The translations under genes were made by a program, and so were the position numbers. DNA of 64,000 bases from Candidatus Sericytochromatia bacterium (lineage in GTDB: Bacteria; Cyanobacteriota; Sericytochromatia; S15B-MN24; UBA4093): assembly GCA_036676985.1 (NCBI GenBank), contig JAKFBU010000041.1:64001-128000 (forward strand), in the 5' to 3' direction. The notes below the pieces were generated by a model. The model was given only the letters and a program-made list of their open reading frames with translations, was not told the DNA's origin and ran no database searches. Positions 48,621-52,823 of this stretch are shown piece by piece (position 1 is the stretch's first letter; every line of letters starts with the position of its first letter).

Positions 48621-49238
48621 CTAGTGGTTGTGATGGCCGCGGTGATCGTGCGGGGCCCCCTGGGTCCCCATGGCGACCACCGGGCCGCAGGCGATGCGCG
48701 CCCCGGCGTTGCCCGCCGGATCCGTGAGGTAGTCGTCCGGGTTGGCGTGGATCATCAGGGACGAGCCGTCCGCATCCAGCAGGGAGTACTTGCCCGGTTT
48801 CAGGGTCAGCAACGGGGCGACGAAGTCCAGCTTGAGCCGGCCCTGCTCGTCTACCACCACGTTGGGCAGGTCGCCCGCATGCGGGCCCTTGGGGTTCTGC
48901 AGGCCGTGCTGCTTGCCGTCCGGGTTGAAGTGGCTCCCGGCGGACGTGAAGGTGGGTCCCTCGCACTGGTTGGTGGCGTGGACGTGGAAGCCGTGCACGC
49001 CCGGCGGCAGGTTGGCGGCGTCGACCTCGATCCGCAGGCCGTCCGCGACCTCGGTGAGGCGCGCCGTTCCGACCTTGGCGCCCTTGCCGTCGATGAGCTC
49101 CGCGGTGGCGGTCATGCCCTTGGCCTGAGCAGGCGCGGCCTTGGCGGGAGCCTGAGGCGTCTGGTGGGCCAGGGCGGCACCCGCTCCGCCGATGGAAGCG
49201 GCCACGAGCCCGGCCACGATGATTCCCTTGCTGATCAT
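48621..49238 (-). CDS. sodC: Periplasmic Cu/Zn superoxide dismutase
   Basis: [34 protein letters not shown]; signal peptide. Confidence 0.93.
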
Positions 49239-49489
49239 GGAGGTTCTCCTTCTAAGCGTGACGCGGCGCGGGGGCGACTCACGGCAGGCTGAGCAGCCGA
49301 CCCGTTCCGCCTCCATTTGACCCCGCGTCCGAGCAGAACGCAATCGACCCTTCTCCGCCGGCGCCGCCCCGAGGTCAAGTTGGGAGCAGGTGGGGGGTGG
49401 CCTCACGGCGCACGCTCGGCAAGCTCGGTTGTTGGCCTGCCGTGCCGATGGTATAGTCAAGGCCACAGCACAGGAAGGGACACCCGTTC

Positions 49490-49891
49490 ATGCCGCACGT
49501 TTCGCTGTCAACTAGCTTGCTGCGCCGCCCCGGCAACCTGCTGCTGGCCCTCTGCTTGGCGTTTGCGGTCTCGAACCTGTTCTCGGTCCTGCCCTTCGGC
49601 AACGCGACCTCGGGCTACATGCCCCCCGTTCCGGCCCCCGTCGCCCAGGCGGTCGACCCCGCGCACCCCGACCTGACAGCCGATACCCTGAACTGGGAAG
49701 ACACCTGCCAGGTCATCTGGGGCGCCCTCTACGACCGCACGGATCCGAGCCAGGGGTGGGCAGCCGTCGGAGCCACCGCCCTCTGGCTGGCCGCGACCGC
49801 GCAGGATCCCCTCGGCGTTACGAGCCCCCGGATTCCGCCGCGCCCCCCGGCGCTCCGCTACTTCCTTCGAGCTCCACCCCGTCTCGCCTGA
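49490..49891 (+). CDS. Exported leader protein with C-terminal RAPP motif (candidate arrest peptide)
   Basis: Extended -10 TGGTATAGT, RBS AGGAAGG, N-terminal hydrophobic segment, ends LRYFLRAPPRLA. Confidence 0.65.
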   Translation: MPHVSLSTSLLRRPGNLLLALCLAFAVSNLFSVLPFGNATSGYMPPVPAPVAQAVDPAHPDLTADTLNWEDTCQVIWGALYDRTDPSQGWAAVGATALWLAATAQDPLGVTSPRIPPRPPALRYFLRAPPRLA

Positions 49892-50025
49892 TCGCCCGCT
49901 GCGATCGCGCCCGGATGCCGCCGCATCCTCCACCCGGTCCCGACCCGGCACTTCCGCGCGTCCGCGCCGGAATGGCCGCGTCGCCATCCTTCCTTTCCGC
50001 GCGACCTTAGATAGGAGTAGTTGCC

Positions 50026-51249
50026 TTGACGCACGTGAAACTCGCTCTCTCCCTCGGTCTCTGTGCCCTCATGGGCCTGGCCTCGCCGGCCTTCGCGAGC
50101 CTCGCCTCGGACATCTTCAAGGACGTGCCCGACGGCCACTGGGCCGAGCAGGGCGTCGCCGAGGTGGCCATCAAGCGCGACCTCATGAAGGGCTATCCCG
50201 ACGGGACCTTCCGCGGCGACCAGCCCTTCACGCGCCTCCAGTTCGTGAGCAGCATGACGGTCCTGCTCAAGGAGCTCGAGGCGCTCTCGAAGGTCACTTG
50301 GCGCCCCGTCGAGCACCCGACCTACGACTTCAAGGACGTCCCCGCCGACCAGAAGACCGAGACCCAGAACCTCACCAACGACTACGGCCTCTTCGAGGGC
50401 GTGCCCGGCATCACGAAGAGCCGCTTCAACGGCGAGCAGACCGTCACGCGCTACGAGATGGCCAAGATCATCAACAACCTCATGCGGCTCGCCGAGGCCA
50501 AGGACGTGGTCCGGCCCCAGGGCAAGGTGGGCGAAGGCCCGACCTTCTCGGACGTGAACCCGTCCGATTGGGCCTATCAGGACATGCAGGGCGTCTCGCA
50601 GCGCTACAAGGTGATGGTGGGCTTCCCTGACGGGACGTTCCGCGGCAACGAGGAGCTGACCCGCTACCAGTACGCCCAGGCCATCTCCCAGACCGTGCCG
50701 CTGATCCGCGAGCTCATCGCCCAGACCACCGAGGTCAAGCAGGAAGAGAAGCGCCAGGCCACCGGCCCGTGGCGCATCCAGGAGCAGCAGCCCATCCGCA
50801 CCGATCTCGGCATCACGTCGAGCGGCCAGACGTCGCTCCGCGCCCGCCTGGTCGGCTATCCCGGCTGGCTCTTCCTGTTCGCCGAGCCGCGCCTCACGGT
50901 CCTGCCGGCTGTCGGGGCCGACGTGGAGGTCGGGGCCTCGGTCAAGTTCCCGTTCCTCGGCCCCCTCCAGTTCCAGCCCTACGTGAGCGGCCAGTACTTC
51001 GGCGGCTCGGGCGCGACGGACCTCGGCCTCGGGGCGTTCGTCTACTGGCGGCCGACCTACTCGTGGGGTGTCTACGGCAAGGGCGGCTACGGCTTCTTGC
51101 AGGCGGTCAGGAACGGCGAACTCGGGGCCGAGTACCACGTGTCGGATCGCCTGTCGTTCGCGGCCGGGTTCTCCGCCTGGCAGACGCCCGCCGCGGGGAC
51201 ACCGACGACCAACTTGGGCTTTACCTTCGGGCCGCAGTTCCGGTTCTAA
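50026..51249 (+). CDS. SLH-domain outer-membrane beta-barrel protein (OmpM/SomA-like architecture)
   Basis: Signal peptide; three SLH repeats (FKDVPDGHWA, GYPDGTFRG, TRYE); alternating beta strands ending in Phe. Confidence 0.85.
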   Translation: MTHVKLALSLGLCALMGLASPAFASLASDIFKDVPDGHWAEQGVAEVAIKRDLMKGYPDGTFRGDQPFTRLQFVSSMTVLLKELEALSKVTWRPVEHPTYDFKDVPADQKTETQNLTNDYGLFEGVPGITKSRFNGEQTVTRYEMAKIINNLMRLAEAKDVVRPQGKVGEGPTFSDVNPSDWAYQDMQGVSQRYKVMVGFPDGTFRGNEELTRYQYAQAISQTVPLIRELIAQTTEVKQEEKRQATGPWRIQEQQPIRTDLGITSSGQTSLRARLVGYPGWLFLFAEPRLTVLPAVGADVEVGASVKFPFLGPLQFQPYVSGQYFGGSGATDLGLGAFVYWRPTYSWGVYGKGGYGFLQAVRNGELGAEYHVSDRLSFAAGFSAWQTPAAGTPTTNLGFTFGPQFRF

Positions 51250-51386
51250 TGGCCTGTCGCTCGGGTGAGTCCTCGTAGCGCCGCTGGGAAAAGGATGCGT
51301 GCGGAACGGGGCGGCAAAGGCGCCTTTTGGGCCCTTTCTCCAATTTCGTTCCGCAGCCCGAGCCCCTCTTAATCAGGAGTTCAATC

Positions 51387-52823
51387 ATGCCCCTATTCGC
51401 TCTGCTCATCGCCGTCGCGAGCCTCTGGCCGGCCGCGGCCTGGGCGGCGACCGGGATCGAGACCGTCGATCTGACGGGTAGCTGGGTCGGAATTTCGGCC
51501 CTGCTCCTCTTCGCCTTCGCCTACGTCCTGGTGATGGCCGAGGAGGTCCTGCACCTCAAGAAGTCCAAACCGGTCATGGTCGCGGCCGGCGTCATCTGGA
51601 TCCTGATCGGCCTTGCCTACGCCGGCATGGGCGACACGCACACGGCCGAGACGGCCATCCGGGCCAACCTACTGGAGTTCGGCGAGCTCTTCCTCTTCCT
51701 GCTCGCGGCCATGACCTTCATCAACACCATGGACGACCGGGGCGTCTTCGACGCCCTGCGCGGCTGGCTGGTGGGACGCGGCCTCTCCCTACGCGCCCTG
51801 TTCTGGGTGACGGGGGGGCTCGCCTTCGTCATCTCGCCGGTGGCCGACAACCTCACGACGGCCCTGTTGATGGGAGCGGTGGTCATGGCCCTCGGCGCGG
51901 GCAAGCCGCAGTTCGTCGCCCTCTCTTGCATCAACATCGTGGTCGCGGCGAACGCCGGCGGGGCCTTCAGCCCCTTCGGGGACATCACCACCCTCATGGT
52001 CTGGCAGGCAGGCCGGGTCACGTTCGCCGAATTCTTCGCCCTGTTCGTCCCGTCGCTCGTCAACTGGCTGGTGCCCGCCGCCCTCATGTCCTTCGCCATC
52101 GAGGCGGGCAAGCCAAACCCCATCCACGCAAAGGCCGTCCTGCACGACGGGGCCTGGACGGTGGTGGGGCTCTTCATAGGGACCATCGCCCTGGCGGTCT
52201 CGTTCCACAACTTCCTGCACATGCCGCCGGTCATCGGCATGATGACGGGGCTCGGCGTCCTCAAGCTCTACGGCTACTTCATGAAGCGCACGGCCCCCAA
52301 GAACCGGCAGGTGACCATCAACGAGCCGGACGACGTGTTCGCCGAGCCACTGGCCATCCCCCATGCCCACGTACACAAGGATCCCTTCGACGTGTTCAAG
52401 CAGCTCGAGCGTACGGAGTGGGACACGCTCATGTTCTTCTACGGCGTGATCCTGTGCGTGGGAGGCCTCGGCACCATCGGATACCTGGCCTTGGCCTCCC
52501 AGTTCATGTATGGGGACCTGGGCGCGACCACAGCCAACGTGCTGGTGGGCGTGCTCTCGGCCGTTGTCGACAACATCCCGGTCATGTTCGCCGTCCTGTC
52601 CATGAACCCGGACATGTCACACGGCCAGTGGCTCCTGGTCACGCTGACCGCGGGGGTGGGCGGCTCCATGCTGAGCATCGGCAGTGCCGCAGGCGTCGCC
52701 CTCATGGGCCAGGCGCGCGGCGTCTATACCTTCATGTCACACCTCAAGTGGACCTGGGCGATCGCCCTCGGCTACGCCGCGAGCATCGGCGTCCACTTGC
52801 TGGTGAACCGCCACCTGTTCTGA
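51387..52823 (+). CDS. nhaD: Na+/H+ antiporter NhaD
   Basis: KKSKP, ISPVADNLTTAL, ANAGGAFSPFGDITTLMVW, VDNIP, GSAAGVALMG. Confidence 0.92.
   Translation: MPLFALLIAVASLWPAAAWAATGIETVDLTGSWVGISALLLFAFAYVLVMAEEVLHLKKSKPVMVAAGVIWILIGLAYAGMGDTHTAETAIRANLLEFGELFLFLLAAMTFINTMDDRGVFDALRGWLVGRGLSLRALFWVTGGLAFVISPVADNLTTALLMGAVVMALGAGKPQFVALSCINIVVAANAGGAFSPFGDITTLMVWQAGRVTFAEFFALFVPSLVNWLVPAALMSFAIEAGKPNPIHAKAVLHDGAWTVVGLFIGTIALAVSFHNFLHMPPVIGMMTGLGVLKLYGYFMKRTAPKNRQVTINEPDDVFAEPLAIPHAHVHKDPFDVFKQLERTEWDTLMFFYGVILCVGGLGTIGYLALASQFMYGDLGATTANVLVGVLSAVVDNIPVMFAVLSMNPDMSHGQWLLVTLTAGVGGSMLSIGSAAGVALMGQARGVYTFMSHLKWTWAIALGYAASIGVHLLVNRHLF

Follow-up and report, generated by a model that had tools for sequence, protein, structure and literature searches.

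The window, a stretch of 64,000 nucleotides, is part of contig C41 in a genome of 4.68 Mb with 67% GC (G000), and its host, uncultured as far as the data show, is inferred to belong to a non-photosynthetic sister class of cyanobacteria, probably Sericytochromatia, represented by 47 genomes. Rho is present in this genome, and a photosynthetic reaction-centre gene was not found in it. The locus under study is a leader ORF with RAPP near its end, which is predicted to head an operon of an SLH-barrel gene and nhaD. The features are as follows.

48621-49238, minus strand: Cu/Zn superoxide dismutase gene sodC, divergent from the leader
49429-49457, plus strand: putative leader promoter, sigma-70 type, with TTGTTG and, after 17 nt, an extended -10 TGGTATAGT at 49449-49457
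49472-49479, plus strand: leader RBS, AGGAAGGG
49490-49891, plus strand: leader ORF, 133 aa, ending in LRYFLRAPPRLA before the stop
49857-49864, plus strand: candidate anti-SD in Arg-Tyr-Phe codons, from MFE folds, predicted partner 50014-50021
49868-49879, plus strand: RAPP codons, followed by three codons and TGA
49892-50025, plus strand: spacer, 134 nt, C-rich (C/G 1.81), with a hairpin at 49890-49906 and the SD AGGAG at 50013-50017; candidate Rho-loading region
49985-49998, plus strand: pyrimidine tract CATCCTTCCTTTCC in the spacer
50026-51249, plus strand: gene of a 407-aa SLH-barrel protein, TTG start; signal peptide, two SLH domains, long helix and predicted small beta-barrel
51259-51363, plus strand: structured RNA motif, 105 nt, three covarying helices, no Rfam match
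51387-52823, plus strand: nhaD, for a sodium:proton antiporter of 478 aa (NCBIfam NF038006 with 581 bits against a cut-off of 80)

The leader and the genes behind it

The sequence-only reading of this DNA had described a 133-aa ORF with RAPP three codons before the stop, an export-type N-terminus and a promoter and RBS of its own. The ORF and the motif are confirmed at their positions, and the N-terminus is indeed of the export type, with a hydrophobic helix at residues 14-33 (Kyte-Doolittle 2.4) which follows a positively charged start (net charge +2 N-terminal of the helix) and finishes in the P-F motif of the family; both a cleaved signal and a retained anchor are compatible with the sequence. 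The RBS also stands, its counterpart at the corresponding position of the sister genome (G001) being AGGAGGGG, and the promoter-like site is kept there with an identical -10 TGGTATAGT and with TTGTTG; the consensus scan did not call this promoter. The gap between sodC and the leader is 251 nt (49239-49489), with TGGTATAGT as the only plus-strand TAnnnT. In the sister genome a histidine-kinase-like gene sits between the two, and sodC is thus one gene further away.

Behind the helix the leader has a variable linker, with the W-x3-C-x3-W of its subfamily, and a second hydrophobic stretch at residues 91-105. Its single Cys lies in the linker, and the CxxC of CruR, a DUF2946 protein, is absent, as the sequence-only reading had stated. 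The AlphaFold model consists of helices only (pLDDT 67, pTM 0.29). In its length below 300 aa, its C-terminal RAPP, its targeting segment and the same-strand gene 134 nt on, the leader has the build of RAPP-type uORFs.

The 407-aa protein carries two SLH stretches (PF00395) after the signal peptide, as OmpM-like tethers do. Its SLH part matches PDB 8BYM/8BYS/7ZGX at E about 1e-8 and the rest is unmatched; with the iron-uptake-porin model, too, only the SLH part matches, below the cut-off. A barrel fold is suggested by a beta-rich C-terminal domain of about 160 aa which ends in Phe, by alternating strands and a terminal Phe in the orthologs, and by ESM Atlas neighbours which include OMP_b-brl at 0.90; the single-sequence AlphaFold run of this domain gave no usable fold (pLDDT 32). 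The gene is one of two close paralogs in its genome, the second lying at C56, and the leader-bearing barrels are a genus-specific pair (G000 and G001).

The same-strand continuation into nhaD had been overlooked by the sequence-only reading. The gap between the barrel gene and nhaD is 137 nt, with no TAnnnT and no terminator-like site, and the gene order leader-barrel-nhaD is the same in the sister genome; nhaD is probably the last operon gene. Synteny of leader and barrel, which had been proposed as a check, is thus kept in the sister genome, but the other loci of the family lead elsewhere: the SLH barrel follows a leader at 2 loci only, in one genus, and both run on into nhaD. No leader was found within 700 nt of L003-L030, a further 28 loci with SLH-barrel or other SLH genes in the class, or of the C56 paralog, nor at the syntenic "cinA-locus" barrel paralogs, and a metagenome scan with a three-sequence alignment for more SLH contexts found nothing. 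Likewise, none of 19 other nhaD loci (15 other genomes, several partial) showed a RAPP leader directly upstream, and a leader directly before nhaD was rejected as the ancestral state, since no such arrangement was seen among those 19 loci. The SLH-barrel-nhaD pair as a predicted leader target is new here, from one genus and two genomes.

The leader family and its contexts

A protein search gave one homolog of the leader, another was found upstream of the barrel ortholog in the sister genome, and iterated profiles enlarged the set to 28 sequences. The terminal RAPP, whose conservation had also been proposed as a check, passes it well: R-x-P-P is kept in all 28 homologs (RAPP 24, RSPP 2, RGPP 1, RDPP 1), with exactly three residues after the motif in 24 of them. 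As RDPP and RSPP are reported to be arrest-permissive and RGPP to be the strongest (PMC12992588), every departure from RAPP in the family is a tolerated one. The N-terminal hydrophobic helix is likewise present in 28/28 (KD 2.1-2.9), finishing in P-F/M/L. CxxC is not conserved, and Cys is missing from most KefC-type members; roughly one member in three has a weak second hydrophobic stretch or none, which we count against the explanation favoured below. No Pfam or NCBIfam family fits the leader, and none of 20 aligned members matches DUF2946 (PF11162) at E<=1; the closest ESM Atlas cluster of the leader, at 0.96, carries the name DUF2946 but shares no Pfam with it. Among 251 genomes of the phylum, only 8, all of one order, have strong matches, and there are two weak ones besides (E 0.016 and 0.018). 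The leader family as such is new here.

The leader of the window falls in a clade of 7 (support 95) with the two copies of the sister genome and four Logan proteins, and W-x3-C-x3-W occurs in 5 of these 7, with the Cys shifted in a sixth. Between the two genomes of the genus, the leaders have about 45-50% protein identity, with promoter, RBS, N-helix and RAPP plus three residues all kept, and the four RAPP codons each differ synonymously. Among the differences listed for strain X7, at least 4 are silent in the leader and at least 6 are replacements, all in linker codons 55-88 and none in codons 1-54.

The motif alone proves nothing, because RAPP is frequent near stops in all six frames at 67% GC (8-22 segments per position in a six-frame scan of the host genome). 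In 4103 genes of this genome, called with a purpose-made codon model, RAPP was observed 3 times where 31 would be expected (Poisson p about 2e-10); as the codon model missed a paralogous leader on contig C43, the observed number is slightly too low. All 3 occurrences lie near the C-terminus of two small ORFs, namely the leader and a CruR-like leader on contig C14. The counts of related motifs in the called genes, with those expected in brackets, are RGPP 0, RSPP 3 (14.7), RAGP 8 (47.7), AGPP 10 (39.7) and ARPP 9 (31). The CruR-like leader (122 aa, G000:C14:33497-33865, minus strand, L040) has a CxxC 44 residues ahead of its terminal RAPP, a second RAPP upstream and a weak match to DUF2946 below the cut-off (E 0.011); behind it come a gene for a barrel-like protein and an operon for metal uptake of the ZnuA/ABC kind, and a modelled stall on it opens the next SD by 4.6 kcal/mol.

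The genomic context is known for 13 loci of the family in 8 genomes, a set which excludes the Logan-only subfamily members P0002 and P0016-P0018. The next genes are a KefC/YbaL-like antiporter at 7 loci (at two of them after an intervening small ORF), the SLH barrel followed by NhaD at 2, and at one locus each a CvrA-like K+/H+ antiporter, a small ORF followed by secF and a KefC-like gene, a membrane protein followed by a USP gene, and a two-component system. The leader is 49-193 nt from the next start, and a cation/proton antiporter (KefC-like, CvrA-like or NhaD) lies within the next three genes at 11 of the 13. Counting against the favoured explanation, the 7 KefC loci go back to a single ancestral event; two of the four other contexts hold an antiporter of unrelated type, which on the base of 8 antiporters in 4103 genes has a chance of roughly 1e-4, a post hoc figure. 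A sec/yidC gene is absent from the called downstream genes at 12/13 loci, and secF lies two genes downstream at the remaining one. The other known context of the subfamily is the two-component system, beside a cluster that in G007 contains another SLH barrel. The family has thus moved between KefC-like, CvrA-like, NhaD, SecF and SLH-barrel targets, and its repeated recruitment to unrelated antiporters is new here.

The idea that a leader precedes every KefC-like gene was rejected, with a leader at only 7/30 KefC-like loci and 1/7 CPA genes of the host genome. The paralogous leader on C43 (G000:C43:2207-2614, minus strand, L039) has RAPP plus three residues; a small ORF of 34 codons comes next, then a KefC/YbaL-like antiporter gene, and ahead of the small ORF are an anti-SD GCTTCTCC and an SD GGAGAAGC, common to G001:C417. 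At L089:4350-10353 (G018:C124), two leader copies stand in tandem cassettes near an integrase-like gene, the first with an RSPP leader, a membrane protein and a USP-like gene, and the second with a RAPP leader, an 84-aa ORF, a lone secF, a KefC-like gene and a second CPA2 gene.

Spacer, Rho and the structured RNA

The spacer of 134 nt, its pyrimidine tract, the AGGAG RBS and the TTG start at 50026 are all as the sequence-only reading gave them. The proposed pairing of the tract with the RBS is not supported, for in the folds the RBS does not pair preferentially with the tract, of which only CATCC is left in the sister genome. The candidate anti-SD at 49857-49864 would be mostly covered by a ribosome stalled at RAPP; its effect varies with the fold window and is not seen in the sister genome. 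For SD release, we modelled how much energy it takes to open the downstream RBS, once with a ribosome stalled at the third residue of the motif and once with none. At 5/13 family loci the modelled stall makes the next SD easier to open by 3.4-10.8 kcal/mol, within the top 1-5% of 150 control pairs, and 4 of these 5 loci have spacers below 90 nt. At the locus studied the pre-set fold window gave -1.2 kcal/mol, with 81% of controls as high; a gain of 1.6-6.1 kcal/mol, an uncontrolled value, appears only when the fold ends 6-20 nt behind the start, and it arises where 49857-49864 pairs with the SD at 50014-50021. In the sister genome SD release is between -1.3 and +1.1 in all fold windows. The fold z-scores are unremarkable (-1.0 and -0.3).

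Rho offers another way of coupling. In CruR, the stalled ribosome keeps Rho from a C>G bubble (PMC9426467). By its C-minus-G bubble the leader end ranks among the highest 1.4% of 3558 gene ends, and each of the 13 family loci falls in the top 17%; these ranks are inflated by Pro codons, whose own letters add C and anti-SD character. Taken by itself, the spacer belongs to about the highest 3% of 473, and the spacer of the sister genome is ordinary, not C-rich (1.19). Rho exclusion, given Rho and a C-rich spacer, and the anti-SD in the last leader codons remain candidates; Rho exclusion, possibly plus SD unmasking, is more likely than the pyrimidine-tract hairpin proposed before.

An independent downstream promoter had been named as what would speak against the proposal. 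By TAnnnT none is present in the last 100 nt of the leader, in the spacer or in the barrel-nhaD gap of the host genome, but the spacer of the sister genome holds TGGTACGAT (L041:7957-7965), a possible internal -10 of the barrel gene. TGGTACGAT is identical to an element upstream of the leaders in G004 and G007. The spacer is poorly conserved between the two genomes. Strain contigs span the leader end, the spacer and the barrel start; X7 has at least 3 differences (49896, 49898, 49899) in the loop of the hairpin 49890-49906, and at least 1 strain difference breaks the closing pair of the next hairpin. A weak terminator-like hairpin lies at 49972-49987 (5 pairs; 3 found vs 1.4 expected).

The structured RNA between the barrel gene and nhaD has 4 distinct copies: at 51259-51363 of the window, L041:9312-9416, L091:6639-6739 and L117:1504-1608 (= L121). 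It lies before nhaD in both genomes of the genus and, in the sister genome, also before a GIY-YIG-like gene and an Nramp transporter; the remaining copy is in the late region of a prophage in G002, upstream of terminase genes. The structure, derived from three of the four sequences, has 22 pairs, 98.8% paired and 10 with double changes, which was reached by 0/500 shuffles. Rfam gave no riboswitch match in 51200-51450 at E<=10, Li+/Na+ and c-di-AMP models included, and none for RF00379. No more copies were found in 141 genomes of the phylum or by metagenome and genome patterns; a match in Acidobacteriota was rejected as lying inside a coding region, and among 28 viral pattern matches the prophage copy alone scored. 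Li+ and Na+ riboswitches precede nhaD elsewhere (PMC9646797); the phage copy argues against a simple Na+ switch. A riboswitch, a ribozyme and a mobile RNA are the candidates for this motif, and the motif is new here.

Interpretation and known systems

What is observed directly is the ORF, its motif, the family, its conservation and the gene order. On this ground we lean, with slightly better than even confidence, to the explanation that a ribosome stalled at RAPP keeps the barrel gene and nhaD on, and that the pull of the Sec translocon on the N-terminal membrane anchor releases the stall and turns both down. Stalling near the leader end, with Pro129 in the P site, is very probable, its position being taken by analogy with CruR toeprinting; 7/7 Streptomyces proteins of the build of the leader stalled, and RAPP alone is insufficient for arrest (PMC12992588). 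Control of the barrel gene and nhaD by the leader is likely. The release by export-driven pull has about an even chance, and we infer it because SecM-type monitors are analogous (PMC10987492) and no metal motif is conserved. The stalled ribosome would keep Rho off the C-rich leader end and spacer, as in CruR, and possibly also unmask the barrel SD. The signal is likely to be membrane energisation or ion stress, read as slow export, given that antiporter genes of three unrelated types have come to stand behind members of the family. Export assisted by SecDF is known to require the proton-motive force, and this would explain the recruitment to antiporters. Of the two genes, nhaD is no less likely than the tether to be what the leader serves, though its second place in the order, with a structured RNA of its own in between, counts against the favoured explanation. 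A more far-reaching version, a ribosome-based sensor of membrane energisation, is doubtful; in it the export pull on the leader reports the proton-motive force, one leader family has repeatedly been recruited to unrelated cation/proton antiporters, barrel and NhaD are controlled together and an undescribed riboswitch-like RNA gates nhaD alone. If true, it would amount to a salt/pH switch with two layers, in a sister group of the cyanobacteria that lacks photosynthesis.

The sequence-only reading had put export- or envelope-coupled control of an outer membrane-wall tether in the centre. Spelled out as a rival, the leader would dose the tether by monitoring the export or envelope state, and nhaD would be a bystander under its own RNA control. 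A RAPP leader with a membrane-targeting N-terminus, kept in the sister genome, remains of that proposal; in both genomes of the genus the leader is followed first by the barrel gene, the subfamily is a separate clade (support 95) with its other context near a cluster which has an SLH barrel in G007, and the RNA motif may uncouple nhaD. However, a tether-centred family is not supported: the arrangement is restricted to one genus, the "cinA-locus" paralogs and 28 other SLH loci are without a leader, 11/13 family loci lead to antiporters, and barrel fold and wall binding are only predicted, all of which makes this reading unlikely. If the barrel is nevertheless the target, it would be a translational control of an outer-membrane tether which we did not find in print.

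It is still less probable that the leader senses a ligand like CruR or CutF, its linker binding a metal or sensing redox via Cys/Trp and thereby setting the stall. Such sensing would fit the W-x3-C-x3-W in five of the seven subfamily members with the shifted Cys of the sixth, the Cu/Zn superoxide dismutase gene divergent here and one gene further in the sister genome, and the DUF2946 name of the closest ESM Atlas cluster (0.96, no common Pfam); yet there is no CxxC, DUF2946 matches 0/20 members at E<=1, most KefC-type members have no Cys, and X7 has, among the differences listed, at least 6 replacements in linker codons 55-88 and none in codons 1-54. That the leader stalls but no longer regulates, having been carried along in a rearrangement with the barrel gene driven otherwise, we regard as very improbable. 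The possible internal -10 in the spacer of the sister genome, the poorly conserved spacer and the lack of a conserved coupling structure speak for it, but promoter, RBS, N-helix and RAPP plus three residues are kept at about 45-50% protein identity, the host genome has no internal -10, and a useless stalling ORF would be expected to be lost where RAPP is ten-fold depleted.

Compared with known systems, the favoured explanation shares with SecM, VemP and ApdA/ApdP the targeting signal and the C-terminal arrest motif, and with Sec/YidC monitors the SD unmasking, predicted at 5/13 family loci, and one locus with secF; it differs in that 12/13 family loci are without sec/yidC downstream and that no sequence family is shared (PMC10987492). 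CruR of Bordetella pertussis (Bp2923, DUF2946) has a CxxC 45 residues before its RAPP and is released independently of its signal peptide, whereas the leader of the window has neither a CxxC, nor a DUF2946 match, nor copper-uptake genes (PMC9426467). CutF of Rhodobacter capsulatus is alike as an exported leader whose stalling melts an SD-shielding stem, and differs as a DUF2946 copper sensor with a proline-rich, EF-P-dependent stall and a multicopper oxidase as target (10.1101/2025.02.05.636593). The downstream protein resembles the OmpM and SlpA tethers in its N-terminal SLH part and C-terminal barrel-like domain, but differs by having two SLH domains and by its barrel domain, which at about 160 aa is much shorter; the reports on these tethers, as far as they were available, mention no leader control (PMC10628300, PMC9388160).

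The closest relatives are the small secretory or membrane uORFs with RAPP/RGPP before non-Sec genes of Fujiwara et al. (EMBO J 2025, PMC12992588), which are alike in having 100-200 aa, a targeting signal, a C-terminal RAPP and a same-strand downstream gene. The RAPP table of their Fig. 4B has 30 downstream classes, including cation:proton antiporter (75 RAPP, 81 AAPP), carbohydrate porin and TolC, and the statement of the sequence-only reading that targets are sec/yidC or TonB-dependent transporter genes is thus too narrow. The Fig. 4B source list contains a member of our family (P0004) as a row upstream of a cation:proton antiporter, as well as K+/H+ antiporter and NhaD rows from other phyla, so that a leader-antiporter pairing of this kind is already catalogued computationally (PMC12992588); "antiporter" is absent from the main text of that paper, and none is tested there. 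The first gene behind the leader of the window, an SLH barrel, differs from the classes of the top-30 RAPP table, and "S-layer" or "SLH" was not found in the main text or in the readable parts of ten supplementary files. Such uORFs were called absent from many Cyanobacteriota (PMC12992588), a literature search gave no paper linking Sericytochromatia to arrest peptides, and the present family extends RAPP leaders into a cyanobacterial sister class. The same paper leaves open whether RAPP leaders regulate non-Sec genes and what the source of the releasing force is (PMC12992588); the family, because it has no metal-binding motif, one anchor and shifting targets, makes a compact test set for export pull as an ion or PMF gauge.
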